IMG/VR virus record: IMGVR_UViG_2529292724_000017 | Strand: one strand, 5' to 3' | Length of the DNA stretch: 19,930 nt | Source: a virus | Taxonomy: Duplodnaviria; Heunggongvirae; Uroviricota; Caudoviricetes | In this document: piece after piece, positions 3,011-18,700 of the stretch | How the letters are laid out: every line of letters starts with the position of its first letter | Position numbering within the stretch: the first letter of the stretch is position 1 | Translations under genes and position numbers: made by a program | Notes under the pieces: model-generated | Databases searched by the model: none | What the model was told of the DNA's origin: nothing | What the model saw: the letters and a program-made list of their open reading frames with translations, nothing else

Positions 3011-3069
3011 AAACTAGTGGTAAAAGGTATATTTTTTAATTTTTCAGACGCTGGCGCGGGGTAATTAAA

Positions 3070-3372
3070 ATGAAATTTGTAAATATACGGTCATCCGAGT
3101 TGCCTGAAATAGATACCTTTGTAAAAGAATGTATCAACCAAGGACAATGGACTCTTTTCAAGGCCGAGAAGGGTGCAGTTAATGATAATAAAGTTGCTTT
3201 TTTTCTAAAGGCTGGCAAAGATTTCTTTGCATTAAATAACAGAGGAAGTGTTATCTCTGTATTTCAATCATTAGATTATAATCTTGAAATGAATGAGGTA
3301 ATTCATTTTTCAGATATTCCTAAACCTGAATCGTTGAGCAATATTGCTAGCTTAGGATTTGCTAGAGTTTAA
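3070..3372 (+). CDS. hypothetical protein (100 aa), first gene of AT-rich two-gene cargo cassette
   Basis: ORF in AT-rich block; 18-nt gap to the next gene, which has a good SD; no family recognised. Confidence 0.55.
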   Translation: MKFVNIRSSELPEIDTFVKECINQGQWTLFKAEKGAVNDNKVAFFLKAGKDFFALNNRGSVISVFQSLDYNLEMNEVIHFSDIPKPESLSNIASLGFARV

Positions 3373-3390
3373 TATATAAGGATATGTACG

Positions 3391-4281: not shown

Positions 4282-4285
4282 TCCT

Positions 4286-4456
4286 TTACTTTTTTGAATA
4301 GATTGCTGCAAGTGCCGTTTTGAGGTCGTAATTTCGGCACTTGCAACTGCAACCAGAAATAGGGCGAACGTTTGACAAACGTTTAGCTATAGTCTGCCGA
4401 TGAAATCCAGTCACTTCCGCCAACTCACTTAAATTTAGAACTATCTTTTTCATCAT
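4286..4456 (-). pseudogene. truncated Nu1-like terS remnant (56 aa, DNA-binding domain only)
   Basis: Not in the supplied ORF track (below its length cutoff); translated by hand from the minus strand as MMKKIVLNLSELAEVTGFHRQTIAKRLSNVRPISGCSCKCRNYDLKTALAAIYSKK, which matches the N-terminal HTH region of the 285..770 product and Nu1; about a third the length of the full gene. Confidence 0.5.
4307..4345. other. perfect 11-bp inverted repeat TGCAAGTGCCG / CGGCACTTGCA (17-nt spacer) between convergent genes
   Basis: Seen directly; lies just 3' of the cargo operon stop and inside the terS remnant; no flanking T-run. Confidence 0.35.
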
Positions 4457-4567
4457 AATTACCCTTCAGATGTCGAACAAATAACATACAATCCATCATC
4501 TTTTCCACTTTTATAAAGTTTTACCTAATAAAATTCAGTTAGTTAGCGAATGATGATGATGTCTATA

Positions 4568-4668
4568 AAATTCAAAAACTAGCCGTTTCCCGCGATGCCG
4601 CCGCCCCGTGGCAGGCATCCCCGCCGGGAGTACCTTTTAAAAAAGGGCAGCATCTGCCGCCCTCCTGT
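4568..4668 (-). promoter_or_regulatory. conserved element, copy 2 (diverged), between capsid stop and truncated terS; terminator-like hairpin GGCAG-cat-CTGCC plus T6 on the minus strand, about 4638..4664
   Basis: Shares the aaaaactagcc...ccgccccgtggcagg...ccgggag core with copies 1 and 3. Confidence 0.45.
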
Positions 4669-4670
4669 CG

Positions 4671-6587
4671 TCATGCCGCCCCGCTCGACTTCACCATGCC
4701 CCGATAATCCAGCGCCGCCACGCCAGCATCGATACGCACCTTCCATGCAATACCGTCCACAGTGAAGCCCTCCTGCTGTTCCAGATACGGCACGTCCATT
4801 CCATCCAGATATGCCACCTCGATAGTGTCGGTGCCTTGCGCTGCAGTGACGTACCACTCCTTGTTGTTGGCCTTGTCCAGTCGCGGCTCAACCACTACCT
4901 GCGCCATATCCTTCACGACGTTGATAATGCCTGGGTTCTGGTTCAGCATACCGTTCTGGTCTACCGGGAACAGCGAAGATGATGACAGCACAGCTCGATT
5001 GGCTGCGCCTTCCAGCGCGGCAGGTACAAGGATATAGGCTGGGATAACATTAATAGGATCGCCGTTCGCATCCTCCTGCAGACGCATAGCCTTACGGGCC
5101 TCATTGAGTCCGTCTGTATCCATCCCTTTAGCGATGAGGTTTTTATGGTCGGCGTGGAACAACGCTTTACCATCTGTGAATTTGCTGTTGGCGGTCAGTT
5201 GCAGGTAGACCAGATTGCCAACCGTTCGTGCGGCGGCACGCCCCATTGCCTGTGGAATGGTCGTGAGCTGGCTCAGGTCATCGTTGATAATGGCCTGGCG
5301 TGTAACAGAGAAGATGTTTCCATAGGTGGCCAGCGCGATCGGCACCCCGCTGTCGCTGGTAGTGACATATTTGTATTCAGCACCTTCCGGGACTTTATCC
5401 AGTTCTGAAAAACCATTCAGACCGACACGTTTAGCCTCATGGAAATTCGACAGAGAACCGGTCTTTGTCCACTGCTGGAAAGTTTCCCCGCTGTTCTGCC
5501 AGCCAGTCAGCACCGACTTTTCAGCACCACCAGCCAGGATATGAGAGAAATCACTGGTGCTGTGCGTAAATGCCAGGTTCACGATCTGCGAGCGATTCCC
5601 GAAACCACTGACGCTGATACCACGATCCACCAGCGAAGCCTGCGCCATTTCAAACAGACTCATCATGGCGTAAGGGTTTCCCCTTTCGGCGCGTTCGTGA
5701 CCCAGACGGGCAAAAAGCCCCTGGCGGATAGCATCGCCGGTAATGTTGCCGTTACCTGCGTAAATGTGCGCGTTACTGGTTTTATCCGATGGGGTCGAGG
5801 TCTTACCCAGTGCCGTCAGCAGCATGTCTTTTGCTTTTTCAGGCGTGCAATCCACATCCTCCAGACACTGCATCTTGAGAGAATCATGCTTGCCGCCGAA
5901 CATGGCAAACAGATCCTTAATCTCGTTGATGCGGTTCTGTTCCGGTACAGCGCTACTGGTGGAACCTTTCGGGCTGGTGATCATCCCTTTAATTTCTTTT
6001 GGCATATGCTCAAAATCCTCAATTCGTTTTGACTCAATACAGGCCATTGCCCTGACGGCGGGTAACAATTCGTCAGCAAAACCCTGCGCTACACATTCGC
6101 GGCCATCCATCCATGTTTCATCCTCCAGCATTTCCGCCAGTGATTCGGCTGATTTTCCCGTTTTGCGTGCATATGCCGGGATCAAGACACTTTCGACTTT
6201 ATCCAGAAGTTCGGCGTAGTCGCGCATGTCGTTGGCGTTCCCACCAGAGATTCCCCACGGTTTGTGAATCATCATGAGTGCGTTTTCGGGCATAACGATA
6301 CGGTCGCCAGCCATTGCAATAACTGACGCCATAGACGCGGCGAGACCGTCGATCTGCACTGTAATTTTTGCCGGGTGTTTATTCAGAAGGTTATAGATAG
6401 CGATGCCGTCAAAAACATCGCCACCGGGTGAATGAATGTGCAGGCTGATATGGGAGATATCGCCTAGGGCTTTCAGGTCTTCGGAGAACTGCTGCGCCGT
6501 AATACCCCAGCCGCCGATCTCTTCGTAGATGCTGATATTGGCGCTGGTGCCATCGCTGGCCGCTTTGATGGTGTACCAGCCTTTCAT
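4671..6587 (-). CDS. prohead protease (ClpP-like, serine motif GLAASMAS) fused to HK97-like major capsid protein, 638 aa, intact
   Basis: N-terminal ClpP-like block (IHSPGGDVFDG...GLAASMASVIAMAG); long C-terminal region typical of major capsid proteins; colinear with both fragments of the interrupted paralog. Confidence 0.7.
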   Translation of the reverse strand: MKGWYTIKAASDGTSANISIYEEIGGWGITAQQFSEDLKALGDISHISLHIHSPGGDVFDGIAIYNLLNKHPAKITVQIDGLAASMASVIAMAGDRIVMPENALMMIHKPWGISGGNANDMRDYAELLDKVESVLIPAYARKTGKSAESLAEMLEDETWMDGRECVAQGFADELLPAVRAMACIESKRIEDFEHMPKEIKGMITSPKGSTSSAVPEQNRINEIKDLFAMFGGKHDSLKMQCLEDVDCTPEKAKDMLLTALGKTSTPSDKTSNAHIYAGNGNITGDAIRQGLFARLGHERAERGNPYAMMSLFEMAQASLVDRGISVSGFGNRSQIVNLAFTHSTSDFSHILAGGAEKSVLTGWQNSGETFQQWTKTGSLSNFHEAKRVGLNGFSELDKVPEGAEYKYVTTSDSGVPIALATYGNIFSVTRQAIINDDLSQLTTIPQAMGRAAARTVGNLVYLQLTANSKFTDGKALFHADHKNLIAKGMDTDGLNEARKAMRLQEDANGDPINVIPAYILVPAALEGAANRAVLSSSSLFPVDQNGMLNQNPGIINVVKDMAQVVVEPRLDKANNKEWYVTAAQGTDTIEVAYLDGMDVPYLEQQEGFTVDGIAWKVRIDAGVAALDYRGMVKSSGAA

Positions 6588-6796
6588 TTTTCCCCTTCCG
6601 TTACAGCGAAGCCATTTTCATCAAGCCATGCGTTGACTGCGTGCCGGACTACCTGTGCCACTCCGGGCAATGGCTGGACAGGAAGATTTTTCAGATGATC
6701 GTTGCGGTATTGCTTAAGGCGTACAACGGTTTGCGCGTCCAGATGTACGGAGCCGCCTTTAGTCTCGCCAGTGTTTAAATCGTTAATGTCACTCAT
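6584..6796 (-). CDS. small conserved protein (70 aa) translationally coupled to the protease-capsid gene
   Basis: Homolog of 13258..13464 (MS.INDLNTG...GGSVHLDAQTV.RLKQYR...PLPGVAQ.VRHAVN.WL..NGFA); ATG at 6794..6796 with SD GAGGA; 4-nt overlap with the capsid start. Confidence 0.6.
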   Translation of the reverse strand: MSDINDLNTGETKGGSVHLDAQTVVRLKQYRNDHLKNLPVQPLPGVAQVVRHAVNAWLDENGFAVTEGEK

Positions 6797-6941
6797 GATG
6801 TCCTCTACTGTATAAGTAAACAGGTTATGATGATTGATCACCAAAAGTGGTAAGTGAACAATTTTTTATCTGAAAAATAGATTTATGATGAAAAAAAATT
6901 TTTGTATGGTCTTAGATTGGAATAAACAGAAAGGTTAAAAA
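6797..6941 (-). promoter_or_regulatory. putative promoter region of the small-protein/capsid operon, with conserved TTACCACTTTT box
   Basis: Boxes aaaagtggtaa and aaaaatagatt recur at 13500..13550 upstream of the paralogous operon. Confidence 0.3.
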
Positions 6942-7655
6942 ATGGATCTCACTCGTAATGACGAACTCCTTTTGAATGATGCAGCTAGACGCTCATTTCG
7001 GGATATGGCAGACCAGGATTATCTCTCAGCTCGTCTGTGTTATAAGCACAAATTGAATTTTCAATTTTTATGGCTTTCGCAACAAGCCGTAGAGAAATAT
7101 ATTAAAGCGATTTTACTTTATAATAGAGTTCCAGTATTAAAATTAAATCACAATTTAAACAAAGGGCTGGCAAAGATTAAAGAAATCCCATATCTTGAAT
7201 TAGACCTAGATGTAAAAAGTGAGCGATTCATAGATTATCTCAATGAGCAGGGCCCAAATAGATACTTCCAAAACACTATGTATACCGAAGGCTTTGAAAT
7301 TATAACCTTGGATAGAACCATCTGGGAATTAAGAAGATACTGCAAGCCACTAAACTACTCAATTACTAACCCAAAAGGTGAAGTGATAGAAATGTTAGAA
7401 CATGAATTGAGTAGCATAAAAAATTCGAAGTCGAGGCCTTATCATACGTTCAAACTATTTGGAGGTTACTTAGAAAAAAGATTAAAAGATAATAAATTCA
7501 ATCAGGGCGACATACTTACATGGAAAAATTTATTTTTTGGAAGAAATAAAAAAAATGCAATTAGAATTGGAAGATCAATGCATGTAACTCATCCAACTCA
7601 TTATATGTACCCAAATGCAACGGAAATGCTCAGTCGTTTCTTTAAAATAAAATAA
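6942..7655 (+). CDS. HEPN-domain protein (237 aa), single-gene AT-rich cargo
   Basis: N-terminal region matches the HEPN pattern as recalled: helix, then SQQAVEKYIKAILL, then NHNLNKGL, then ...NRYF (compare hQQAvEKalKAll ... tHdL ... RYP); SD AAAGG; opposite strand to backbone. Confidence 0.5.
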   Translation: MDLTRNDELLLNDAARRSFRDMADQDYLSARLCYKHKLNFQFLWLSQQAVEKYIKAILLYNRVPVLKLNHNLNKGLAKIKEIPYLELDLDVKSERFIDYLNEQGPNRYFQNTMYTEGFEIITLDRTIWELRRYCKPLNYSITNPKGEVIEMLEHELSSIKNSKSRPYHTFKLFGGYLEKRLKDNKFNQGDILTWKNLFFGRNKKNAIRIGRSMHVTHPTHYMYPNATEMLSRFFKIK

Positions 7656-7743
7656 TTACATTCCAATTTTATTTACCGCTGTTAAATAAGTAAGGTATAT
7701 CTTTATTTATCGACATTGATAATCATGAAAGAGTATATCTTTT

Positions 7744-7960
7744 TTGCCGCACCTAGCGCATTTCTCACCGCACTTTCATCCCGCGCACTTAGGTGCGCAA
7801 TCCAACATGCACCGTACAGCCATTAAAACCAGTAATGGGGCGGGTTTGCAGGTGATTAATGCCAAACCGCGCACTTTCTTCGTATATACATGGAAAAAGT
7901 GCGGCAAGTGTATGTTTTATGAGCATTTCGCGCATCACGCGCATTTCTTGCCGCACTTTT
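7744..7960. repeat. iteron-type origin region: repeats of (T)TGCCGCAC / CGCACTTT in both orientations plus palindrome GCGCACTTAGGTGCGC
   Basis: Five or more copies within ~220 bp immediately downstream of the replication gene ending at 7965. Confidence 0.5.
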
Positions 7961-7964
7961 CAGG

Positions 7965-9374
7965 TTAAATTATCGTGATATCTCCTGAATCATCGATAAA
8001 GATAATATTCTCCCTAACGAGTTTATCAAGCCAGCGTTTAAAACCTTTGCGGCCGTTCTCTCCAAACAGAGTGGTAATATCATCACGTATAACAGAGACA
8101 TTACACGGTTCACCTTTGGCTTTTCGGCTCCGGATTGACTGCCAGAGTGCAGCGTGGTTCCCAGTCAGGTGCTTGATATCAGCAAGTTCCGGATCAGGTT
8201 CTCGTGCCTCTCGTGGCAGGTCCTGCACCACCAGCGACGAAATAAGCTCACCATCACGATCTGTGAACAATTCGATCGGACGCAGATCGAATGCGGCCTG
8301 TTTCGGCTCCTCCGCATCTTTCATCTTCGTACAGGTCAGGATTATCGCCCCACCATCCCCCTCGCGCCGGACATTGAACTCTGCATCGAGCGCAGCCCTG
8401 AAAGCACTGGAACCACGTGCGCCTTTGGTATCGTCTTTTCCTGAATGATGCACCACCAGCAACGTGGCGCCAGTCTCACGCTTGATGACGTCGCAGCCTT
8501 CAATAAACGCCCCCATGTCACGAGCATCGTTTTCATCGTTACCACCAAAGCACCGCGCTAGAGTATCTATGACAATCAGGCGAACCGGCTGCCCCGTTTT
8601 GGACTTAACGTCACGCGCAGCTTTGATCATCTCCTGCATTTCCTCACGGCGAACCGGGAAAACCGGACGGTTTACCAGATACAGATTATTTAGTTTCACA
8701 CCATGTTTTTTCTCCCACGCCTTTATTCGCCGCGGAACGCCAATACCACCTTCACCTACTACGTACATCACAGCGCCGGCTGATACCGACTTCCCCGCCC
8801 ACTTCATCCCGGCTGCAACGTGACAAGCCCAGGACACCGCCAGAAAACTTTTATACGAACCGCTCGGGCCGTAGATACTGCTCAGGCTGTTAGCGGGAAG
8901 ATAACTTTTTAACGTGTAATCCTGCTCCTGATCGTACCCATCAGAGCCCACGCTTAAAGGAAGGCTGTGCCGCAGTGACTCCTCTCGCACAGAGACTTCA
9001 ACCTGTTCACGCAGACGAGAAAGATATTCCCTCCAGTCCTCAGGCTCATGGTCGGGGATTCCTTTATACAATTTGGCATCCTGCACGCCAGCCAGCGCCA
9101 GCTTTTCAGCAATGTTATTAATCTGGATAGGCTTTATATTCCCTGCCAGGTAAATCCGCACGGCACGACGGCCATCATCCACAATGCGCAGGTTATCCAG
9201 CTCTGCCAGTTGTTTTGGCCCAAGGTAAACAGGAGGAGTGGTATCTTCGGCAATCTGTTTACCAAGCCCCTCTTCCCAACCCTTCGCATGGGCGTATGCT
9301 TCTGACCCGGCAAAAATAACTGCCTCCGTGAATTTTTCTTTTGGCAGGTGTTTCAGATTCGGTGCGTTTTTCAT
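7965..9374 (-). CDS. replication initiator: primase-associated N-terminal domain fused to RepA/DnaB-like RecA-fold ATPase (469 aa)
   Basis: Walker A GPSGSYKS and Walker B-like LIVIDTL; first ~125 aa shared with the 14246..16063 product. Confidence 0.65.
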   Translation of the reverse strand: MKNAPNLKHLPKEKFTEAVIFAGSEAYAHAKGWEEGLGKQIAEDTTPPVYLGPKQLAELDNLRIVDDGRRAVRIYLAGNIKPIQINNIAEKLALAGVQDAKLYKGIPDHEPEDWREYLSRLREQVEVSVREESLRHSLPLSVGSDGYDQEQDYTLKSYLPANSLSSIYGPSGSYKSFLAVSWACHVAAGMKWAGKSVSAGAVMYVVGEGGIGVPRRIKAWEKKHGVKLNNLYLVNRPVFPVRREEMQEMIKAARDVKSKTGQPVRLIVIDTLARCFGGNDENDARDMGAFIEGCDVIKRETGATLLVVHHSGKDDTKGARGSSAFRAALDAEFNVRREGDGGAIILTCTKMKDAEEPKQAAFDLRPIELFTDRDGELISSLVVQDLPREAREPDPELADIKHLTGNHAALWQSIRSRKAKGEPCNVSVIRDDITTLFGENGRKGFKRWLDKLVRENIIFIDDSGDITII

Positions 9375-9694
9375 TTCAGCCCCTTATCCCATCCGTCAGA
9401 TCCAACACTCAGCGGCAGAGAAGAGCGCAGAGCAGCGATTTTTTTACGCACGTTTTCTTTTACGGTCTCCTGCCACTCCCTGCTTTCCTCAGGGAGATAA
9501 ATAAATTCTTTTCGGAACCGGTACTCAGAAAAAATACACTCATGTGAATACCCATCCCGGACATACGTAATACGGCTATCCGTTATGCATGTGACAGTAA
9601 TTTTTTCTCCGCGAGAATCTTTCCAGCGACTGTTAAGCTCGATTTTTGGTTGAGCGATGCCCTCAAGCTGAACCTGATTGAATTTTTTAATCAT
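9371..9694 (-). CDS. conserved hypothetical protein (107 aa) translationally coupled to the replication gene
   Basis: Homolog of 16060..16359 (shared block TV..I...R.Y..RDGYS); 4-nt overlap with downstream start. Confidence 0.55.
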   Translation of the reverse strand: MIKKFNQVQLEGIAQPKIELNSRWKDSRGEKITVTCITDSRITYVRDGYSHECIFSEYRFRKEFIYLPEESREWQETVKENVRKKIAALRSSLPLSVGSDGWDKGLK

Positions 9695-9698: not shown

Positions 9699-9878
9699 TT
9701 ATTCCTTGTCGGTAGCCGTTAAACCGTATGCTTCAGCAGCCTGACGAACTGCCTGGATAAAACCTTCCGGTGTGGCCACGATTTCGTCCGGACGAAGGCG
9801 GCGCTCTGTAACCTGACCGTTTTTAACCGTCACCAGTACGCGGATCTCGTAATCAGCAGGTAAGGCGGAGTTATCCAT
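9699..9878 (-). CDS. hypothetical small protein (59 aa)
   Basis: Internal ATG of track ORF 9699..10004, overlapping the stop of the upstream Ash-like gene by 8 nt; clean composition ([16 protein letters not shown]...). Confidence 0.4.
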
Positions 9879-10158
9879 GGCGCACCTCCATTGGCACAGC
9901 TTCATTGCTGTAAGGATCGCTACCCAAGATGCTCCATAGGGTGCGATGTTCAGGATCCATAAACGACACTGAGAGCGGGCTTTCTGTTCGGATTTTGGCG
10001 GCAAAGGTCAAGTCCCAGCCGCAGAACTTTGCACGGGCAGTATCTTCAGTGTCTGCAATGGTGCGCAGAACTATCGGGAGACAAGAGTGACCTCGCGGCG
10101 TGCCAAGGAATAGCCATGTAAATTTTGGGCGAGTTTGGGTATGCTGTTGATCAGCCAT
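9871..10158 (-). CDS. Ash/Icd-like small protein typical of P4-type elements (95 aa)
   Basis: [12 protein letters not shown]...[17 protein letters not shown] resembles the KFTW(R/L)F...E.EAR pattern of Ash/Icd-like proteins as recalled; ATG at 10156..10158 with SD GAGGT; first gene of the replication operon. Confidence 0.45.
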
Positions 10159-10190
10159 AACTGTTACCTCAACTAACGGTTTGTGGTTAG

Positions 10191-10235
10191 ACGTCCCGTG
10201 AGTGGTTCCAAGCACTTCCGGGACGTTGCTTTTTT
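10191..10235 (+). terminator. conserved hairpin ACGTCCCG-(20 nt)-CGGGACGT followed by TGCTTTTTT, terminator-like on the plus strand
   Basis: Paralogous hairpin at 16919..16952 has ACGCCCCG/CGGGGCGT, a compensatory base-pair change; both sit ~40 nt upstream of an Ash-like start. Confidence 0.45.
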
Positions 10236-10251
10236 CACGTCAAGCGTGATA

Positions 10252-10296
10252 ACGTACGTACGTAATAGCAACATCCTATGAGGTTACGTACGTACA
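10252..10296. promoter_or_regulatory. two palindromic operator-like sites (ACGTACGTACGT and TACGTACGTACA) flanking the promoter of the RHH gene
   Basis: Two near-identical palindromes ~33 bp apart; the second overlaps the RHH start codon; region lies between divergent genes. Confidence 0.45.
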
Positions 10297-10487
10297 TGTC
10301 AACAATAAAACGAGATAAAACACCCAAAGGAGAGGGCTTGTCTCCGACATTCCAAATCCGAATAAGTCCTGAATTGCGCCAGCAGATGAATGAAGCTGCT
10401 GAGCGTGAGGGAGTAAGTCTTGGTAATTGGCTTAAAGGTCTGGCTAGAAATGAACTTATTAAGCAAGGAATTGAACCTAAAGGTTAG
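10296..10487 (+). CDS. ribbon-helix-helix (Arc/CopG/HicB-type) DNA-binding protein, candidate repressor of the inner element
   Basis: FQIRISPELRQQMNEAAEREGVSLGNWLKGLARNEL fits a beta-strand plus two helices RHH; divergent from the replication operon; start placed at the second ATG (track ORF begins 10278). Confidence 0.55.
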   Translation: MSTIKRDKTPKGEGLSPTFQIRISPELRQQMNEAAEREGVSLGNWLKGLARNELIKQGIEPKG

Positions 10488-10540
10488 TTTTCACAAGCAC
10501 TCTTTGATTTTTTCAGTAAAAATTAAATTAAGGAAATTCT

Positions 10541-11251
10541 ATGGATGATTTATATACACCATCTGAATATTTTATGTTCGTAGAGAAATTTGATCATTAC
10601 TTCCCACGAAAAAGCCCTTTTAACTCATTATTATTCGAGTTCAATTATAGATTAGAAGATATAGTTGTTTTTCATCGCTTTGTTATCAACACCTATTCAA
10701 AAAATAAAAAAGCAATTGATGTACAATATAATAAATTTAATTTTCTTGATGATAAACAAAAAAATTCCCTTTCTGATGACGAGTATGAAGCGTATCAACT
10801 CAGGTTTGCAAGGCATATGGAATACATTAACCATCAAACTGATTTGAATGAAAAAGCGTCTTACATTGCTAACGATAGTGTCGTTATAAACTTATGGGCC
10901 ATGAATGAACAATATATGACTAGAGGATTGGCCAACCTAATATCTCAAAAAGAAAATAAAAATTTAAATGAAGTTAAAACGCCTTACAAATGGGATACAA
11001 TCAAAAGTAAATTCCTGTCATATGGAATCAACTTTGAGACATTGCCATCTTATGATGACATTAATGAATGTAGAGTACTGAATAATAAAATAAAACATCT
11101 GAACATAGTAGATTCTGGTTTAGAAGTTTTCCCTCCCTTCAAAGGTAAGCTTAACGAATCACTTACTGGCATGGCCTTTCCTCTTCAAAAATATATCATA
11201 GGCTCTCATCACTTTATAGGAATGCTATTAGAAGAGTGCTCATTAAAATAA
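10541..11251 (+). CDS. hypothetical protein (236 aa), AT-rich cargo downstream of the RHH regulator
   Basis: SD AAGGAA; 53-nt gap after the RHH gene with no obvious terminator; no family recognised. Confidence 0.55.
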   Translation: MDDLYTPSEYFMFVEKFDHYFPRKSPFNSLLFEFNYRLEDIVVFHRFVINTYSKNKKAIDVQYNKFNFLDDKQKNSLSDDEYEAYQLRFARHMEYINHQTDLNEKASYIANDSVVINLWAMNEQYMTRGLANLISQKENKNLNEVKTPYKWDTIKSKFLSYGINFETLPSYDDINECRVLNNKIKHLNIVDSGLEVFPPFKGKLNESLTGMAFPLQKYIIGSHHFIGMLLEECSLK

Positions 11252-11297
11252 ACGCATGGCAACGTATAATTTATCGCTTAATACGTTGCCATATCTC

Positions 11298-11543
11298 TCA
11301 TTTATTTTTATCGAACCAATCTCCTTTAATCCAAGCTTGCATCTCTGAGAGCCGGTAAGCAACTGCTGACGGCCCAATTTTGATTCGCTTAGGAAATTTT
11401 CCTTCCTGTTCCATGCGCCAGCGCGTTGAGTTAGACAACGTAGTCATAGCCCGGCATTCAGGTTCGCGAATCATTCTGTCAAGGTCAGGCATGTACTGGA
11501 GATCTTCTTTTTTCACAACGGATAACATAGCCATATCAGGCAC
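11298..11543 (-). CDS. alpA: AlpA-family small DNA-binding protein (transcriptional regulator/excisionase-like)
   Basis: IREPECRAMTTLSNSTRWRMEQEGKFPKRIKIGPSAVAYRLSEMQAWI matches the AlpA HTH pattern; SD AAGGAG; start overlaps the integrase stop. Confidence 0.65.
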   Translation of the reverse strand: MPDMAMLSVVKKEDLQYMPDLDRMIREPECRAMTTLSNSTRWRMEQEGKFPKRIKIGPSAVAYRLSEMQAWIKGDWFDKNK

Positions 11544-12771
11544 TCCTTTTCTTAATTACTTTTACTGTATTTTCTTCACCCACCAGCCCATCAAGGTAGT
11601 CAACCCATCGGTCCAGTGCTTCTTGCTTTTGAGGGATATACTTGCTGCGGTTATAGACTCCGGCCACGCCCTTTATGGTATGCCCCAGCAGCTGCTCTAC
11701 GACCATAAAATCAACGCCCATATCGTTAAGGCTTGTCGAGAACGTTCGTCTCAAATCATGTAATGACCAGCGTTTTTCATGTTTCAGAGAGATAAAGTTT
11801 GTGCATCCCATCGTACTGACGGTTGAATCAGATTTCAGTTCGCCAAATATGTAGCCTCTCCTTTTAGTCTCTTCGTGCAGGTTTACGATCCACTGGCGCA
11901 TTTTTTGAGGAACGGGGCGAATAATTTCTTCGCCGTTTTTACTGTGCTCTTTAGGTACTGTCCAAATCCACTTATCGAAATCCCACTCATCCCATGTAGA
12001 TAAACGCGCCTCACTCAGCCTGCAGCCAAACACGAGACACAAAATCGCCATCCTTTTTTTGTAATTCATTACACGGGTTTTGCCTTTACCATGAAAGTAC
12101 ACTCCCCACAGATCGGCGACGTAGCTTTCCTCAAGTAGCCGCTCTCTCTTGTTCTGATACTTACCGATATCACCAGGGCTCAAATCATCAAGCACATTGC
12201 ACCGCACATACTGGCGCACCCGGCAGTATTTGAAGATCTGCTTTAACTCAATCAGCATTGCAGCAGACTGAACCGGCGCGATTTTCTTTATGCGGTCGAA
12301 GCACTTGATCCAGTCTGACAGACCGCATTTCTCGACAGGAAACCCGCCGATGTAGGGAAAAATGTATCTCTCATAACGGCGATAGAGCCGTAAAGTCTCT
12401 TTGCGCTTTTCCCTGGCATAGTTATCAAACCAGTAATCGATAGCGTTCTTCACAGTTACTGGAGTGAACAGGTTCTCTTTGGTGAGTTTGTTCTCTATTC
12501 GTGGGTCGAGTCCCTGAGATAGCCATGCCCGGCACTCGTCCCTTTTCTCTCTGGCCTGTTTAAGGGTCATATCTGGATACTTGCCTAACGTCATCCAGAC
12601 GGGGGCGCTTTGTCGGCCGGAATGTCTGAAGAAATACACAAAGCTCACAGTGCCACTAACGCTCACTCTGACAGACAGTCCACGACCATCTGCCACCATC
12701 TTTTGACGCGGCTGGGGTTTACCATGTAAGGCCTTTAACGCCTTGTCGCTTAACTTGTTCTCGCCCGCCAT
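11536..12771 (-). CDS. int: tyrosine site-specific integrase, P4-type (411 aa)
   Basis: Length and motifs of phage integrases (C-terminal LHDLRRTF, LLGH, then Y in VYNRSKY); paralog at 18701..19930. Confidence 0.8.
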   Translation of the reverse strand: MAGENKLSDKALKALHGKPQPRQKMVADGRGLSVRVSVSGTVSFVYFFRHSGRQSAPVWMTLGKYPDMTLKQAREKRDECRAWLSQGLDPRIENKLTKENLFTPVTVKNAIDYWFDNYAREKRKETLRLYRRYERYIFPYIGGFPVEKCGLSDWIKCFDRIKKIAPVQSAAMLIELKQIFKYCRVRQYVRCNVLDDLSPGDIGKYQNKRERLLEESYVADLWGVYFHGKGKTRVMNYKKRMAILCLVFGCRLSEARLSTWDEWDFDKWIWTVPKEHSKNGEEIIRPVPQKMRQWIVNLHEETKRRGYIFGELKSDSTVSTMGCTNFISLKHEKRWSLHDLRRTFSTSLNDMGVDFMVVEQLLGHTIKGVAGVYNRSKYIPQKQEALDRWVDYLDGLVGEENTVKVIKKRSA

Positions 12772-12783
12772 AAAACCTCATTC

Positions 12784-12807
12784 TGCAATACACATTGCAA
12801 TACACAC
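12784..12807. repeat. tandem repeat TGCAATACAcatTGCAATACAcac immediately upstream of the integrase start
   Basis: Same motif as 2697..2721 at the other end of the inner element. Confidence 0.5.
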
Positions 12808-12934
12808 TTAACTGCAACGCCGAAAAACAGTAGAAAAGCAATGCAAACAACACCTCTTCTTTCTTCATAATTAACAATAAGTTAATGAATGAATACGGTT
12901 CTTCATGCGTACCCATGAGGTAGTGTGAAGGATA

Positions 12935-12946
12935 ATGGATCATCAT
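12935..12946. repeat. 12-bp direct repeat ATGGATCATCAT, right copy (putative att core / junction)
   Basis: Identical to 2618..2629. Confidence 0.65.
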
Positions 12947-13258
12947 CATGGCGTTCTCCGGCATCACTACACGATCGCCAGCCATTGCGACCACCGAAGC
13001 CATTGAAGCCGCAACACCATCGATATAAACCGTAATGTCTGCCGGATGATTCCGTAGCAGGTTATAGATGGCGATGCCTTCAAACACATCACCACCTGGT
13101 GAATGGATCCTCAGATTGATATGTGAAACATCGCCAAGGGCTTTCAGGTCTTCCGCGAACTGCTTTGCAGTAACACCGAAGCCGCCAATCTCCTCATAGA
13201 TAGATATATCCGCCGCTCCACGAACATCCGCCGCCTTAATGGTGTACCAGCGATTCAT
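12935..13258 (-). pseudogene. ClpP-like prohead protease / capsid gene, 5' portion only (N-terminal ~108 codons)
   Basis: MNRWYTIKAADVRGAADISIYEEIGGFGV...GVAASMASVVAMAGDRVVMPENAMMMIH is colinear with the N-terminus of the intact paralog; the track ORF 12719..13258 reads on into insert DNA after the repeat. Confidence 0.7.
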
Positions 13259-13464
13259 TATTCCCCCACCGATGCAAAACCATTCTGATTAAGCCAGGTG
13301 TTTACGGCATGTCTGACAATCTGCGCCACACCTGGTAATGGTTTGTCAGGATGATGATTTATATGGTCGATCCTGTACTGCTTAAGGCGCATAACGGTCT
13401 GCGCATCCAGATGAACGGAACCACCCCTGATATCGCCCGTGTTCAGGTCATTAATACAACTCAC
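13258..13464 (-). CDS. small conserved protein (68 aa) preceding the interrupted capsid gene
   Basis: Homolog of 6584..6796; probable GTG start with SD AGGAAG. Confidence 0.55.
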   Translation of the reverse strand: MSCINDLNTGDIRGGSVHLDAQTVMRLKQYRIDHINHHPDKPLPGVAQIVRHAVNTWLNQNGFASVGE

Positions 13465-13562
13465 AGTAACTTCCTCTTACTGACTAAACTGTGCACATTA
13501 TTGATCGATAAAAGTGGTAAATAAATATATTTCTATCATAAAAATAGATTAATCAGATTCAG

Positions 13563-13589
13563 ACACAAAAAAGCCGGAGAAAATCCGGC
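13563..13589 (-). terminator. intrinsic-terminator-like hairpin GCCGGA-gaaaa-TCCGGC followed by T6 on the minus strand
   Basis: Seen directly. Confidence 0.4.
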
Positions 13590-13776
13590 ATAAATACCCC
13601 GCCATCTGAACACGTTTTGACACTGGCAACTCCACCTGGCAGGTGAAAAACAGATTTATTTATATATTTCAATTAATTGCAAGCTGGTCTAATGACAGGG
13701 AGAAAAAAATATTGTACAGGTGAAAACAGAAATAATTTTTAATTATCAATAAATTATCAAACATGCTGCCGCCGCC

Positions 13777-13873
13777 ATGAAAATGCAAAAACCAGCCTTT
13801 TTCCGCGACGCTCCCGCCCCGTGGCAGGTCACTACACCGGGAGGACCCATAAAAAAGCCGGATTGCTCCGGCT
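13777..13873 (-). promoter_or_regulatory. conserved element, copy 3 (near-identical to copy 1 over ~75 bp) with terminator-like hairpin GCCGGAgcaaTCCGGC plus T6 on the minus strand (13850..13873)
   Basis: Direct-repeat copy lying upstream of the small-protein/capsid module rather than downstream of the capsid gene. Confidence 0.45.
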
Positions 13874-14005
13874 TCTGTTACTCGTTGCTTAAAACGGTAT
13901 GTTATCCCCGTACGGATCATCATTCCCCGCCTGTTGTTTTGGTGTGCTTCGCTGTCATAGGCTTTATCTCACAGCAGTAAATTAAAATTTTTGCGTTTTA
14001 ACCCT

Positions 14006-14232
14006 TCACCTGTTCACCTTTTGATATTTTCTCTTTTAATTCATAATGTTAAGGGGTGAACAGTTTCACAAAAACTATTCACCAACTGTTCACCACTGTT
14101 CACCCTTGAAGCTCAATAAACAATCAAAAAGGTGAACAGTGAATAGTTTGGTGAACAGTTCATAAATAACTGCTCACCCTATAATATACTGATATAAAAG
14201 ATATTTATGACAGGGTGAACAGTGGTGAACAG
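14006..14232. repeat. iteron-type replication origin: eight or more copies of GGTGAACAG / CTGTTCACC in both orientations with AT-rich spacers
   Basis: Copies near 14009, 14055, 14086, 14096, 14131, 14151, 14214 and 14224; immediately downstream of the primase-helicase gene. Confidence 0.65.
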
Positions 14233-14245
14233 TTATTCCATAAGT

Positions 14246-16063
14246 TTAATTTTTGCTATCGTCATTAGTGACCGATACACATGATGGCATCCAGTCTTCT
14301 GATTCCTCCGTCAGTGTCACGTTTGAACGCAAACCGTGCTTCGTTTTCCGTTTCATATACTCCCTGCCATATTCCGCCATTGCCCCCGGCATATCTTTAC
14401 CGAAGCGCGTCAGTGTTACAGGTTTACCAAACCCATGTGCCCTCATATAAGCCAGATAGGCATGATAGAGATACCTGCGTGGGCTGAATGGCACAATTTC
14501 AGCATTACCCACTAACAGGCCATCACACATTACCGACGCCATGAGATAGCCGCAGAAGTCCACCAGCGAATCCCCCTCTCGCTTTATCGCCAGTGCTTCT
14601 TCAGATTTCTGCTGCTCATATAACAGGCGTCTGGCTTCGTCCTGGTCAGCAAACCGTGTAAGCAGATGGCGAATCACTACCGCCAGCTCACCTTCTATTT
14701 TTTCCGCCAGCATTGGATCACGTTCGTTCTCCGGTACAACTTCCGAAAAATTGAATATCACCCGACGACGTGAGATCCCCCCGCTGCGGTCACTGAATGA
14801 CATGGCGTTATTGTTAACCGCCAGCACTACTGCCGGAATACGCGTTGAGTAGGGGGCTTTGTGTTTCGGGTCAATTGCCACCTTGTCACCGCCTGTAATA
14901 GCCTTAATCCCTGCCCCATCACCAGCGTAGCGGGTCATATCCGGCATGATAATCAGCGAAAAGCCAACCACTAACGCGCGTTCCCTTGCATCTTCCAGCG
15001 CCTTCATGCTTGCCGATACTGTGTTGGCCTTACCCGCCAGCATGGTGCAAATCTCCGCCATCACGCTTTTACCACTTCCCCCTGGACCTGTTACCTCAAT
15101 GAATAACTGCCAGTCGTACCGGTTCGCCAGCACCATGAATAATGCAGCCAGTACGCGATCCGCCTTGCGGTCATTCTCAGCCACCGAACGGCGTAACCAC
15201 TTCCAGAAATTCGGCGCATGTGTTGCCAGCGTTTCCCCCTCTGCTGGTGGGCTGAAAGGTAATTCACTGGCAATTAACAACCAGTCGTTTTTGTTATGCT
15301 CCCGAAAATTACCTGTTCTGGTATCAAATACCCCGTTACTGAATCCAATCAGGTTACGGGCTGTATTCCCCATTACAGGCAAACTTAACTTCATGGTATC
15401 GACCGCCGATTTAATGGCGTTCTGCGAATAGCTGATCTCCGCATCAATGAAAATCTGTGCCATAGCTCGCTGTAATTCTTTATCCTGTACTGGCTCCCAT
15501 ACAACGCCGTTGTAATGGTGAACAGTGTCAGAGTCAGCATGAATCGCCAGTTCACCGCCATAATGTGCCAGGAGAACTTCGCCGCGTTGACTTGCTCCCA
15601 TCTGGTTAAGCGCCAGTGATGAAGCGTTATCGTCTTTTACCCGCTCTTTTTTCTTTACAGGCAGTTCAACTACCTTTTTCTTTTCCGCCTGCTCTGCCCG
15701 TTCACGTTCCAGATATTCGCGCCAGTTCTCCCGTTTCTGGCTGTGCATTCCTTCAGGATAATAATCAGCATCCCTGACACCTGCCGCTGCCAGTTTCTGC
15801 CCGATGGTATTAACAAGTCCCGGACGCAATAACCCCGCCTGGTAGAGACGCACGCGATAGCGTCCGTCTGGTACGATTTGCAGGTTGTCCAGTTCGGCAA
15901 GTTGTTGCTCTCCAAGCCAGACAGGTGGCACGTTATCGCCAGCCAGTCGCCCGTCCTGTTCCTGCCACTGCTTCGCATGTGCCCACGCATCACTACCCGC
16001 AAAAATGATGACTTCCGTCATTTTGTCACGCGGTTGGTGTTTTAAATTTGGCGCTTTTTTCAT
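14246..16063 (-). CDS. primase-helicase replication protein (P4 alpha / D5-like, SF3 helicase Walker A VTGPGGSGKS), about 605 aa
   Basis: N-terminal domain shared with the 7965..9374 product; central primase-like region; Walker A and DEAD-like motifs; start placed at MKKAPNLKH (second Met), overlapping the upstream stop as ATGA. Confidence 0.7.
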   Translation of the reverse strand: MKKAPNLKHQPRDKMTEVIIFAGSDAWAHAKQWQEQDGRLAGDNVPPVWLGEQQLAELDNLQIVPDGRYRVRLYQAGLLRPGLVNTIGQKLAAAGVRDADYYPEGMHSQKRENWREYLERERAEQAEKKKVVELPVKKKERVKDDNASSLALNQMGASQRGEVLLAHYGGELAIHADSDTVHHYNGVVWEPVQDKELQRAMAQIFIDAEISYSQNAIKSAVDTMKLSLPVMGNTARNLIGFSNGVFDTRTGNFREHNKNDWLLIASELPFSPPAEGETLATHAPNFWKWLRRSVAENDRKADRVLAALFMVLANRYDWQLFIEVTGPGGSGKSVMAEICTMLAGKANTVSASMKALEDARERALVVGFSLIIMPDMTRYAGDGAGIKAITGGDKVAIDPKHKAPYSTRIPAVVLAVNNNAMSFSDRSGGISRRRVIFNFSEVVPENERDPMLAEKIEGELAVVIRHLLTRFADQDEARRLLYEQQKSEEALAIKREGDSLVDFCGYLMASVMCDGLLVGNAEIVPFSPRRYLYHAYLAYMRAHGFGKPVTLTRFGKDMPGAMAEYGREYMKRKTKHGLRSNVTLTEESEDWMPSCVSVTNDDSKN

Positions 16064-16359
16064 TTCTGCTCTCTCCACGCGGCAATCATGTTTTTCAGTT
16101 CCTGTAGTTTTTTATCCACATCCACACGTGACACATGGTTATTTCTGGAAGGCGGGATTTCCCGCCGGAATCTGCTAATAAAGATCTCCACGTTCAGCGA
16201 GCTATGAAATGAATAGCCATCACGAATAAAGTACACACGGTCAAACATTATCGATTTTACTGTTACTCTGTTGCCGTTCTTATCCCGATAAATAGCGCCG
16301 GGGATAATTTTGGGATGTGCATAACCGCTGGCAGTCAAGCCAGATAAATATGTTCTCAT
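16060..16359 (-). CDS. conserved hypothetical protein (99 aa) translationally coupled to the primase
   Basis: Homolog of 9371..9694. Confidence 0.55.
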   Translation of the reverse strand: MRTYLSGLTASGYAHPKIIPGAIYRDKNGNRVTVKSIMFDRVYFIRDGYSFHSSLNVEIFISRFRREIPPSRNNHVSRVDVDKKLQELKNMIAAWREQK

Positions 16360-16365
16360 GATTAT

Positions 16366-16686
16366 TTATCCCCGATTTGAATCAGTATTCGCTTTCTTTA
16401 TGGCATTTAATGCATCTGTGGCATTTTCAATGGTGCACCGTAACGAAATATCAAACTGCCCAAGCATTGCCAGTAACAAACCGATATTACCCATATCAAT
16501 GCGCATGGCCTTTTCGTCATAGTCCTCATTTTCTGACGCATGCCACATCAGGCTACCAATTGACGCAACAGCCATTGATATATTGTCAGTAGCCCCATCC
16601 GCAGCGGAATAAACCTTTTTAGCAATATCATGCTCACAGTTAAAATGCGGATTAATCAGGTACTGGTAATTTGACATATCAGGCAT
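16366..16686 (-). CDS. hypothetical protein (106 aa)
   Basis: Clean composition; start overlaps the stop of the upstream Ash-like gene. Confidence 0.45.
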   Translation of the reverse strand: MPDMSNYQYLINPHFNCEHDIAKKVYSAADGATDNISMAVASIGSLMWHASENEDYDEKAMRIDMGNIGLLLAMLGQFDISLRCTIENATDALNAIKKANTDSNRG

Positions 16687-16882
16687 GGCGCACCTCCTTG
16701 CGGATACGGGCGGTGAACACCATCACGCAGCCAGCCGGGGATTGCTGGCGGGCTTCCTGTTCACTGGTGGCCACGATGGTAATCACACGCGGTTTTGCGG
16801 CGCTCAGGGCGATAAAACGCCAGGTGAATTTATTCAGGTTGTGCGAATCCCGCCCTCGCGGGTGTATGGTATGATTTCTCAT
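16679..16882 (-). CDS. Ash/Icd-like small protein (67 aa)
   Basis: MRNHTIHPRGRDSHNLNKFTWRFIALSAAKPRVITIVATSEQEARQQ...; ATG at 16880..16882 with SD GAGG; paralog of 9871..10158. Confidence 0.45.
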   Translation of the reverse strand: MRNHTIHPRGRDSHNLNKFTWRFIALSAAKPRVITIVATSEQEARQQSPAGCVMVFTARIRKEVRHA

Positions 16883-16901
16883 AGCTGCCTCGATACTCTC
16901 G

Positions 16902-18092
16902 TTATCGTTGGTGGTTAGACGCCCCGTATGTGTTTCCGGCACTGCGGGGCGTTGCTCTTTGTATTTCAACAATCCTTTCGGTGTGTTTCATGTTATGAGC
17001 GCATGAAACACACGTCAAGGCTTTTTGTATTTCTTTTTTTGTGTATACTGAAACACACCGATGATTAGGAGTTTCAGAAATGGCAACGGCTAACAAAAAC
17101 GCAAAATCACAACTGACAACTGTCAGAGTCCCACTAGATGTTATGCAAGGGATGGAATCCGTTAAGCTGGACGGCGAAAGCAATGCCGGATTTATCGTAA
17201 CCGCCATGCGCGGAGAAATAGCCCGCCGCCAAGCAGAAGGCAGCGGAGAAAATCCCCTTGTGTCGTCACTGGATGCCCTGGCTAAGGTCGAACAAATCGG
17301 CATCAAAGCAGCGGAAGAAATCGGGCAGCTTGTCACCGTTGCACGCGAAGAACTCCAGCGTCGCAAGACCAAAGAACCAGAGTAATCACCATCAGCGCCG
17401 TGGTGTAAGGTATTACGGCGCATTGCTATGCAGGACAACACAATGACCGATAAAGAATTGACCAAAACATTATCACCGGCACGGAAAAGACGGCGCAGAA
17501 AGATAGAGCATGAATCAGAAAGATTCGCGCCATGTGCTTTTGCTCTTGAGAAATTCCTTAAAGAGCACAGGAAAAAGCTCTCGTTGCAAACCTTGGAACG
17601 AACCAAATCTGACTGATCACATTGCCCACCAGCCGCAAATGTGGCATTGTTGGTGATGCTCATGCGTTGGGGATAACGTGTAGCTTGTGTCGAGGGGCCA
17701 CCGTAGCGGGTGGCCTTTGTTTTGCCTGTTATCCGGCAATTGTGGCGCTTCGCCACACGGTTGATATAATCCCACTGCTCAGATTCATTTTTTGCGCAGT
17801 AGGTTAATTGTTCACAAAGGCGCTCCGGCAACGGGGCGCTTTTTGTTTTTATTAGTTTGTAGAAACCTGACTCAGAGATAATGCTCATATTCTGATTGCC
17901 GTCAGGGGTGTAAGTTAAATTTACTCCCTTTTTATCATCAAACATCTGCAACGCTCTGGCGTTAACAATATTGGTTTCACTCCCGCCAGTAAGGCCGGAA
18001 ATAACCGGAATAATTTCGGCAAAATTTTGCAGATTCTGTTTTTCAGGACGAACGAAGCCCCGCCCTTGTTCGGGAGAATATCCAGTATTCAT
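16902..18092 (-). CDS. uncertain long ORF (396 codons): the N-terminal ~150 codons look protein-like, the rest is Ser/Arg/Cys-rich and overlaps plus-strand genes
   Basis: Only 17620..18092 looks coding by composition; probably a gene remnant or a spurious extension. Confidence 0.2.
   Translation of the reverse strand: MNTGYSPEQGRGFVRPEKQNLQNFAEIIPVISGLTGGSETNIVNARALQMFDDKKGVNLTYTPDGNQNMSIISESGFYKLIKTKSAPLPERLCEQLTYCAKNESEQWDYINRVAKRHNCRITGKTKATRYGGPSTQATRYPQRMSITNNATFAAGGQCDQSDLVRSKVCNESFFLCSLRNFSRAKAHGANLSDSCSIFLRRLFRAGDNVLVNSLSVIVLSCIAMRRNTLHHGADGDYSGSLVLRRWSSSRATVTSCPISSAALMPICSTLARASSDDTRGFSPLPSAWRRAISPRMAVTINPALLSPSSLTDSIPCITSSGTLTVVSCDFAFLLAVAISETPNHRCVSVYTKKEIQKALTCVSCAHNMKHTERIVEIQRATPRSAGNTYGASNHQR
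16919..16952 (+). promoter_or_regulatory. conserved hairpin ACGCCCCG-(18 nt)-CGGGGCGT upstream of the Ash-like gene
   Basis: Paralog of 10191..10226 with a compensatory base-pair change. Confidence 0.4.
17080..17385 (+). CDS. hypothetical protein (101 aa), possibly an RHH-type regulator divergent from the replication operon
   Basis: SD AGGAG; balanced composition; TTVRVPLDVMQGMESV suggests a beta-strand plus helix; same position and orientation as the RHH gene of the inner element. Confidence 0.45.
   Translation: MATANKNAKSQLTTVRVPLDVMQGMESVKLDGESNAGFIVTAMRGEIARRQAEGSGENPLVSSLDALAKVEQIGIKAAEEIGQLVTVAREELQRRKTKEPE
17428..17616 (+). CDS. hypothetical small basic protein (62 aa)
   Basis: Same frame as and downstream of 17080..17385; basic (ARKRRRRK); weak support. 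Confidence 0.25.
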   Translation: MQDNTMTDKELTKTLSPARKRRRRKIEHESERFAPCAFALEKFLKEHRKKLSLQTLERTKSD

Positions 18093-18144
18093 GGTTAGAT
18101 CTCTGTATTAGTGGATGGGTGGCGGCTGTGTGCCGCCAGCCTGA

Positions 18145-18333: not shown

Positions 18334-18375
18334 AATTCCCCCTTTGATATTTCTTAAAGAGTTATTTGGTGTCCT

Positions 18376-18678: not shown

Positions 18679-18700
18679 TTCTAAAAAATCGCAAAAAAAA

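Follow-up and report, generated by a model that had tools for sequence, protein, structure and literature searches.

The IMG/VR virus record IMGVR_UViG_2529292724_000017 (Caudoviricetes) comprises 19,930 nucleotides, and the whole of this stretch is called the window here. A satellite of the helper-embedded phage-inducible chromosomal island (HE-PICI) type, termed the inner element, is contained within it. Between the alpA gene of this element and its leftward replication operon lie a gene for a 63-amino-acid (aa) ribbon-helix-helix (RHH) protein and, directly downstream on the same strand, an AT-rich gene for a 236-aa protein (Table 1). An earlier note, made from the sequence alone, had proposed that palindromes at the start of the RHH gene are its operators, that the RHH protein is the master repressor of the element, and that the 236-aa gene is transcribed with it in the manner of rexAB with lambda cI. 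The analysis described here points to an Arc-type RHH repressor of satellite replication followed by a probably co-transcribed accessory slot that here holds candidate HEPN-like exclusion cargo. Taken as a whole this scheme is fairly probable, and its parts are held with different degrees of confidence.

Table 1. Features of the window (positions are those of the window)
Feature	Position	Strand	Evidence or remark
Predicted promoter P_L	10273-10302	-	Promoter scan; -35 TTGACA 10302-10297, -10 TAGGAT 10278-10273, 18-nt spacer
Predicted extended -10 promoter P_R (TGaTAACGT)	10247-10255	+	Predicted start near 10262, for the RHH-cargo transcript
Putative operator O1, ACGTACGTACGTAA	10252-10265		Covers -10/+1 of predicted P_R and about +1 to +15 of predicted P_L
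Putative operator O2, TTACGTACGTACAT	10284-10297		Inverted copy of O1; within 18-bp spacer of predicted P_L
RHH gene, 63 aa, Arc-like	10296-10487	+	Pfam PF05534, PHROG, Arc profile match
236-aa cargo gene	10541-11251	+	Open reading frame (ORF), 53 bp downstream of RHH gene
12-bp perfect hairpin with T-rich tail	11256-11292		Between convergent 236-aa gene and alpA; free energy (dG) -16.1 kcal/mol, z = -4.1
Conserved hairpin and plus-strand T-run, leader of leftward operon	10190-10227 (to 10235)		Covariation, 14 sequences
icd-like gene, first of leftward operon	9871-10158	-	Library scans and RefSeq annotation
Small ORF after icd-like gene, leftward operon	9699-9878	-	ORF
DUF4222 gene, leftward operon	9371-9694	-	Library scans and RefSeq annotation
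RepA-type AAA_25 helicase gene, leftward operon	7965-9374	-	Library scans and RefSeq annotation
Complete ClpP-protease/major-capsid fusion of inner element	4671-6587	-	ORF list, library scans and RefSeq annotation
alpA, inner element	11298-11534	-	Library scans and RefSeq annotation
Tyrosine integrase gene (int), inner element	11536-12771	-	Library scans and RefSeq annotation
Outer-element 396-aa ORF	16902-18092	-	Pfam: no match
Outer-element AlpA	18145-18501
Outer-element int	18701-19930

The RHH protein

The assignment of the 63-aa protein to the RHH fold, already made in the earlier note, is supported by sequence matches. The protein scores 25 bits against Pfam PF05534 (HicB, RHH region; residues 18-46), where the cutoff is 21, which places it above the curated threshold of a family in the RHH superfamily (Arc/MetJ/CopG). 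It also matches PHROG 228, named "Arc-like repressor", with E=4.6e-5, and falls just under the 30-bit cutoff of NCBIfam YlcI_YnfO_N at 27.7 bits. The best solved structure found with a profile of 41 homologues is P22 Arc (1b28), a weak match (E=0.028) that nevertheless pairs RHH residues 11-58 with Arc residues 2-49, nearly the whole protein. Residues T18, Q20, and R22 align with Gln9, Asn11, and Arg13 of Arc, the residues of the antiparallel strand that read the operator. An AlphaFold2 (AF2) monomer model places helices at 25-37 and 42-56 (pLDDT, the per-residue confidence score, above 90) after an extended segment at 17-23, giving the beta-strand/helix/helix order of the superfamily. The strand itself is not called in the monomer model; in RHH proteins it forms only in the dimer.

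The start codon assigned by the PGAP annotation pipeline in the identical RefSeq locus is the same as the one used here. A 69-aa version starting upstream at 10278 was considered and dropped, as the MSTI start is kept in relatives (with GTG as its codon in L002; loci compared in this work carry L numbers). The RHH family is broad: clustering at 90% identity gives at least 104 clusters, spread over the Enterobacterales. In RefSeq the protein is labelled either "toxin-antitoxin system HicB family antitoxin" or "YlcI/YnfO family". Its match to the HicB profile is confined to the RHH part (positions 19-47 of 51). The protein has neither the HicB N-terminal domain nor a C-terminal extension and ends a few residues past helix 2, and library scans and RefSeq annotation give no HicA match among the neighbouring genes. 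The HicB antitoxin name is, judging by these sequence comparisons, a domain-level over-annotation.

Paired sites at the RHH start

Two near-identical palindromes had been reported at this position, the second overlapping the RHH start, and both are present, ACGTACGTACGT at 10252-10263 and TACGTACGTACA at 10285-10296; the final A of the latter is the A of the RHH ATG. With up to one mismatch, the 11-mer TACGTACGTAC gives five overlapping matches, all in this intergenic region, where 0.12 are expected; five matches were reached in 0 of 200 shuffles of the 19.9-kb window, and no further copy occurs anywhere else in it. The two ACGTACGTAC sites are mutually inverted. They form a perfect 12-nt inverted repeat (10254-10265 and 10284-10295) that lengthens to 14 nt with one mismatch and is equalled in 0 of 200 shuffles. 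The resulting 14-nt sites, O1 and O2, are 32 bp apart from centre to centre. O2 sits between the Shine-Dalgarno sequence of the RHH gene (GAGG, 10280-10283) and its start codon.

The arrangement recurs in relatives. Seventeen distinct versions of the RHH-icd intergenic region were compared, from sources that include E. coli, Klebsiella, Raoultella, Morganella, Moellerella, Trabulsiella, and Serratia; a scan of genome contigs with the RHH protein gave five loci only. All 17 elements have two mutually inverted arms of 10-16 nt at a constant distance from the RHH start, spaced 30-36 bp from centre to centre, or about three helical turns. In each element the observed arm length was matched in 0-2 of 200 shuffles.

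Both sites of a pair change together across the 17 elements, and the arm sequence changes only where the residues equivalent to Gln9 and Asn11 of Arc change. The strand PTFQIRI accompanies ACGTACGTAC-type arms in 12 distinct loci. PAFQIRI is found with AGGTGTGTACCTAT and ATAGGTACACACAT (L007, L026), PLFNVRL with TGTATAGACC and GGTCTATACA (L017), PPFHMRI with GGTGTACACC (L025), and TKKNIRF with GGTACGTACC in the outer element of strain 90-9280 (L001). These five specificity classes differ mainly at residues 18 and 20, and the Arg equivalent to Arg13 of Arc is invariant in the elements compared. Because arm sequence and DNA-reading strand vary in step, the RHH protein probably reads O1 and O2, as the earlier note had supposed of its palindromes; the co-variation is strong comparative evidence for binding at these sites. 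The operator classes look heteroimmunity-like. Strain 90-9280 carries nested satellites of different RHH classes, an inner one with PTFQIRI and ACGTACGTAC and an outer one with TKKNIRF and GGTACGTACC (RHH gene at L001 18926-19111).

Predicted promoters and proposed control

The sites lie among two predicted promoters that face each other and overlap. P_L, with a predicted start near 10266, would serve the operon of the icd-like, DUF4222, and RepA genes; its elements (TTGACA, a spacer of 17 or 18 nt, and TAnnAT) recur in 14 of the 17 relatives, and two more have near matches (TATGTT and CAGTAT). The P_R pattern TGnTAnnnT stands at -49 or -50 from the RHH ATG in 15 of the 17, with TATAAT in its place in L018. 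Opposed promoters are therefore predicted, in line with the divergent promoter region of the earlier note, but they are placed face-to-face and overlapping and not back-to-back.

As O1 and O2 overlie both predicted promoters, repression with autoregulation is the likely mechanism. Arc-type RHH dimers would bind the inverted 14-bp sites three helical turns apart. Occupancy of O2 would fill the spacer of P_L, and occupancy of O1 would cover the P_L start as well as the -10/+1 region of P_R. The bound protein would then shut the replication operon in the quiescent state and autoregulate its own gene. Its transcript would read, without an intervening terminator, into a variable accessory slot and end at the hairpin at 11256-11292, and the slot gene would be expressed alongside the repressor during satellite dormancy, like rexAB with lambda cI. 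In the present element the slot product would be a stand-alone protein, whose most likely role is that of a HEPN-like nuclease in abortive infection or in the exclusion of phages.

Several observations weigh against this scheme. All of the promoters are consensus predictions. The -35 element of P_L lies over codons 1-3 of the RHH gene, which confounds its conservation with coding, and P_R has no clear -35 element and was not called by the promoter scan. The loci compared are kin, and part of the co-variation is due to common ancestry; the specificity classes that are independent number about five. The outer element of the window has no RHH homologue, which means that RHH control is not universal among such satellites. 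In addition, PADLOC-DB v2, searched at E<=1, matched neither the RHH protein nor the 236-aa protein, nor any of three further cargo proteins.

AlpA is an activator in Gram-negative phage-inducible chromosomal islands (PICIs), and the repressor of these islands is said to be unclear (PMC6092414). The RHH protein is likely to be a repressor at the putative operators. The "master" rank given to it in the earlier note is harder to maintain in view of the AlpA activator, the conserved hairpin in the leader of the operon, and the outer element that lacks RHH.

A variable slot behind the RHH gene

The 236-aa gene directly follows the RHH gene on the same strand, as first described, and has a G+C content of 29-33% against about 50% in its flanks. 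The 53-bp gap between the two genes shows no significant structure (z = +0.7), and the scan called neither a promoter nor a terminator within it. The corresponding gap ahead of a 241-aa homologue in relatives is just 24-27 bp. After the 236-aa gene comes the hairpin at 11256-11292, whose fold strength is equalled in 0 of 200 shuffles and which is likely the terminator of the RHH-cargo transcript; it may be bidirectional. The unstructured gap, the short gaps in relatives, and the strong hairpin together make co-transcription of the two genes likely, in agreement with the original proposal.

Comparison of homologous elements shows that the slot is variable. Close homologues of the 236-aa protein form 14 clusters, against the 104 or more of RHH. 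All are from Enterobacterales, and all lie between an RHH gene of 63-64 aa and alpA. Among loci recovered through RHH alone, the family follows RHH in one of 12 (the 241-aa homologue in L026). In the other loci its place is taken by a SWIM zinc-finger gene (L020, L021), an 84-aa Cys-rich ORF (L002), or ORFs of 41, 51, 58, and 147 aa (L022, L016, L023, and L025, respectively), and the slot is empty in L015, L017, L018, L019, and L024. It is also empty in the outer element of strain 90-9280, a locus not recovered through RHH. A 236-aa ORF on the minus strand of L024 was considered as a flipped homologue and rejected; it resembles a 234-aa minus-strand ORF of L015 and not the family. Since the slot contains different genes or none, the 236-aa gene is best seen as cargo and not as a dedicated toxin partner. 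A variable and apparently co-transcribed cargo gene would fit the parallel with lambda cI and rexAB.

The 236-aa protein family

The statement that the 236-aa protein belongs to no recognisable family is true of the curated libraries and too strong otherwise. Pfam, NCBIfam, and PHROG give no match for it, and Pfam gives none for 10 distant family members. An exhaustive profile search, by comparison, found a broad unannotated family of 342 representatives at E<=1e-3, of which 53 are at E<=1e-30.

Conservation is concentrated in a small set of polar residues. In an alignment of 61 sequences with a mean column identity of 23%, R178, N182, K185, and H186 do not vary, and conservation reaches at least 90% at E123, E176, N181, and L194. 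The invariant residues form the motif R178-x3-N182-x2-K185-H186. The string R-x-[LVI]-N-N-x-[IVL]-K-H occurs in nearly all full-length members, and the pattern R-x3-N-x3-H in most of 161 family sequences checked, fragments included. Judged from the alignment, the constellation E...E-x-R-x2-N-N-x2-K-H looks catalytic.

The AF2 model of the protein is all-helical with a pLDDT of 94.5, and its matches to HEPN-like folds are modest. A Foldseek search of the PDB with this model returned nothing significant. The same search of BFVD returned one uncharacterised myovirus protein (E=5e-3), which gives no function, and two sequence profiles of the family (A1 and A2) found only coiled-coil noise in the PDB. 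The HEPN motif R-x4-6-H is absent; the spacing here is R-x7-H, with N181 at the position of the canonical Arg. By hhalign the family reaches a probability of 0.3% against the HEPN-domain protein encoded elsewhere in the window, 0.9% against a single DUF4145 protein, and 1% against an alignment of 37 DUF4145 sequences. Filing the family as HEPN was rejected on these probabilities, all of which are at most 1%. A DUF4145 (HEPN) protein in another cargo slot of a sister satellite has the segment MRHLRNSAAH, which shares the register R-x-L-x-N-x3-H with the family motif. The 236-aa protein thus appears HEPN-like in modelled fold and in motif logic and is no more than a candidate member of HEPN. That it is a stand-alone, self-controlled nuclease for phage exclusion is a best guess, put forward tentatively and about as apt to fail as to hold.

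More distant members occur without an upstream RHH gene (L032, L034, L039, L042, L043, L046-L048). In L032 the gene lies between the tail-fibre assembly and tail sheath genes of a P2-like phage, which we take to be the Z/fun position of the P2 map. Z/fun is listed as a P2 defence locus (PMC13586616). In L039 the gene directly follows those for a P2-type integrase and a CI repressor, and in L034 it comes after a umuC-like gene. The member in L048 (region 1128-4666) stands downstream of an AAA_13 ATPase, whereas those in L043 (region 3084-6414) and L042 (region 782-2225) are upstream of an HD-CE/HATPase protein and of an NTP_transf_6 nucleotidyltransferase, respectively. By gene content these look like moron or conflict-island settings. 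The distant members in L042, L048, and L043 could form two-gene systems in other lineages, and the nucleotidyltransferase pairing of L042 would echo HEPN-MNT modules.

Alternative explanations

The earlier note had offered an antitoxin-first toxin-antitoxin (TA) pair as an alternative. In such a pair the RHH protein would neutralise the 236-aa toxin by binding it and, through the palindromes, would repress only its own operon. The RefSeq antitoxin label, the gene order and short spacing, the frequency of HEPN-type toxins among TA components, and the nucleotidyltransferase that follows one distant member of the 236-aa family all suit this explanation. It is contradicted by the independence of the two genes: 11 of the 12 loci recovered through RHH lack the 236-aa family and have unrelated downstream genes or none, and the family members listed above from L032 to L048 have no RHH gene upstream. 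The 63-aa protein consists of the DNA-binding fold only, with neither an extension for toxin binding nor the N-terminal domain of HicB. No neighbouring gene matches HicA, and the putative operators lie on the predicted promoter of the opposite operon. A TA pair is accordingly quite improbable. The 236-aa protein could instead be a factor of the satellite life cycle, belonging to a "Bro zone" as an anti-repressor or as a helper-sensing or helper-interference protein, with no part in defence. The gene does lie in the dynamic zone that separates alpA from the replication genes, Bro-N proteins occupy neighbouring slots of relatives, and the defence library gives no match for the protein. According to Tommasini et al., this zone holds both regulators and immunity functions (PMC10111431). 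Yet members of the family also turn up away from satellites: at the P2-like Z/fun position, adjacent to a P2-type integrase, and near AAA_13 and HD-CE proteins in islands from chromosomes or metagenomes. The gene is missing from most related satellites, and its invariant polar constellation suggests an enzyme more than a DNA-binding regulator. We consider a life-cycle role unlikely, though it deserves more weight than a TA pair.

The inverted repeats could also have a meaning unrelated to RHH binding, either as an RNA or DNA hairpin that occludes the ribosome-binding site of the RHH gene or as sites for AlpA, the integrase, or a host factor. The arms of L007/L026 and L017 are complementary only to each other and are not self-palindromic, as expected of a hairpin, and the Shine-Dalgarno sequence falls in the would-be loop. 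An RNA hairpin is disfavoured because both predicted starts (about 10262 rightward and about 10266 leftward) fall between the arms, so neither transcript would contain both of them. Moreover, changes in the arms track exactly the two RHH positions that match base-reading residues of Arc, and the spacing of about three turns is kept while the intervening sequence drifts. The arm-type motif of the integrases of these elements is different and lies elsewhere (PMC10111431). These explanations of the repeats are very improbable, and an Arc-type repressor acting at O1 and O2 is preferred.

Relation to known systems

The closest counterpart of the proposed repressor is Arc of the P22 immI region (Pant-Pmnt). 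Arc is the best structure match and shares the RHH fold, and the strand positions that differ with the operator are its DNA-reading positions. The Arc operator lies in the spacer of P22 Pant. Likewise, the putative satellite operator is in a predicted promoter spacer at overlapping opposed promoters, and the repressor gene is the first of the transcript that it would regulate. The two systems differ in that the satellite has two inverted sites 32 bp apart instead of a single 21-bp operator, and in that its target is the icd-like/replication operon instead of ant; the sequence match is also weak, as noted above. With lambda cI-rexAB the satellite would share, by analogy, an autoregulated repressor transcript that carries a non-essential gene, its expression in the dormant state, and a plausible exclusion function. 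In contrast, the lambda repressor is a helix-turn-helix protein, and the satellite has a single cargo gene in an interchangeable slot, without similarity to RexA or RexB and with an exclusion role that is only surmised. Stl of the Staphylococcus aureus pathogenicity islands (SaPIs) and Rpr of Gram-positive PICIs are comparable as small, divergently placed repressor genes facing a satellite replication operon, but their fold is unrelated, and relief by a helper-phage protein has no support here. HEPN toxins and abortive-infection nucleases (HepT/DUF86, DUF4145) resemble the 236-aa family in having a conserved Glu-bearing helix and a later helix with invariant Arg, Asn, and His. They differ from it in their canonical R-x4-6-H motif, which the family lacks, having Asn for the canonical Arg.

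The inner element agrees with published HE-PICIs in its integrase, AlpA, variable zone, replication zone, and late zone with a capsid gene (PMC10111431). That paper makes no mention of an RHH/HicB-type regulator, its operators, or the 236-aa family (neither "HicB" nor "ribbon" occurs in it). In the literature searched, no paper treats this RHH protein as a PICI regulator, and one 2026 survey simply counts HicB and YlcI/YnfO among the accessory "toxin-antitoxin" genes that satellites carry. RHH repressors and operons that combine a repressor with exclusion are classical, and the element class and its nesting have been published. A conserved control module of Gram-negative PICIs that consists of an Arc-like repressor and its paired operators appears to be new in the searchable literature. 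The RHH specificity classes, the expression slot behind RHH, and a widespread unannotated family with a non-canonical HEPN-type motif also appear to be new.

The Arc-like repressor and its operator pairs offer a concrete candidate for what keeps many such satellites silent. The specificity classes would account for the way in which satellites that are nested or in tandem escape cross-regulation. The slot behind RHH would provide a simple rule for finding satellite genes expressed during dormancy, where anti-phage cargo is expected, and the 236-aa family, whose motif is an unusual variant of the HEPN type, may be a new family of defence proteins or nucleases. A more far-reaching proposal is that RHH and its paired operators are the missing quiescence repressor of many Gram-negative PICIs (helper-embedded, capsid-forming, and classical), in "heteroimmune" classes that let satellites coexist, with a plug-in defence slot, and that the 236-aa family is a new single-gene HEPN-like abortive-infection nuclease with an R-x3-N-x2-K-H active site. 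In this full form the proposal is doubtful.

The leader of the leftward operon

The hairpin in the leader of the leftward operon is conserved as a structure. Five of its 10 pairs show compensatory double changes and none is broken in the 14 sequences. A T-run follows it on the plus strand in most elements, and a TAnnnT hexamer at 10140-10145, ahead of the hairpin, is kept despite overlapping two different Icd N-termini. An antisense RNA of about 85 nt that covers the Shine-Dalgarno sequence and start codon of the icd-like gene could arise from hexamer, hairpin, and T-run, with the hairpin and T-run as its possible terminator, and the hairpin suggests further control at the RNA level. At gathering thresholds, Rfam finds no family in the window. 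The single hit of a permissive scan in the leader was a full-length, sub-threshold match to Plasmid_R1162 antisense RNA (22 bits against a gathering cutoff of 55, E=0.54). Membership among the C4/CI-type immunity RNAs of P1, P7, and P4 was rejected, since the leader has no Rfam C4/isrK match. A 13-nt, 85% complementary inverted pair (10221-10233 and 10264-10276) joins the 3' arm of the leader hairpin and its T-run to the stretch from O1 to the -10 element of P_L, and may either serve transcripts that read through as an alternative pairing or be a product of chance.

The inner element and its surroundings

The window is DNA of E. coli. Four complete RefSeq genomes match its region 10100-11400 with 100% identity and a fifth with 99.9%; ETEC-2264, O114:H49 strain 90-9280, and TW10828 are among them. 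The inner element is a helper-embedded PICI satellite. Its extent, roughly 2.6-12.9 kb of the window, is set by two copies of the HE-PICI doubled motif TGTATTGCAnTGTGTATTGCA, at 12784-12804 (no mismatch) and 2700-2720 (one mismatch), where none is expected. In HE-PICIs two co-oriented copies of this doubled motif (tgTGTATTGCantgTGTATTGCa) flank attP, and both copies here are on the minus strand. As in other HE-PICIs, the insertion is within a late gene, with int and AlpA at the upstream end. The interrupted gene is a second ClpP/capsid fusion. Its N-terminal fragment (12719-13258) abuts int, its C-terminal remainder is at 1028-2647, and RefSeq marks both pieces as partial. As this gene belongs to another PICI and is split by the inner element, the arrangement is that of an "HE-PICI in a PICI", a configuration already reported by Tommasini, Mageeney and Williams in 2023 (PMC10111431). 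Relatives are inserted in prophage terminase or capsid E genes (L007-L010, L020, L023, L025, L026).

The right-hand part of the window (12800-19930) departs from the RefSeq genomes in which the inner element is also present, and its best match has 82% coverage and 94.7% identity. In the outer element, the 396-aa ORF is followed by icd-like, DUF4222, and D5-type primase genes. In the identical RefSeq locus the far end of the composite carries a tRNA-Ile gene.

Two further sites in the inner element carry AT-rich genes. Between the RepA helicase and the capsid module, a counter-oriented cargo gene of about 32% G+C (6942-7655, plus strand) encodes a 237-aa HEPN-domain protein (Pfam E=1.6e-5). The equivalent slot of sister elements holds a DUF4145 (HEPN-type) protein in L011 and a DUF3775 protein in L002, and with such differing contents it looks like a second variable slot. 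At the distal end, past the capsid gene, are plus-strand genes of 32-40% G+C for proteins of 100 aa (3070-3372) and 296 aa (3391-4281). Neither has an NCBIfam or PADLOC match, and RefSeq labels them hypothetical proteins; together they are probably a third cargo site.

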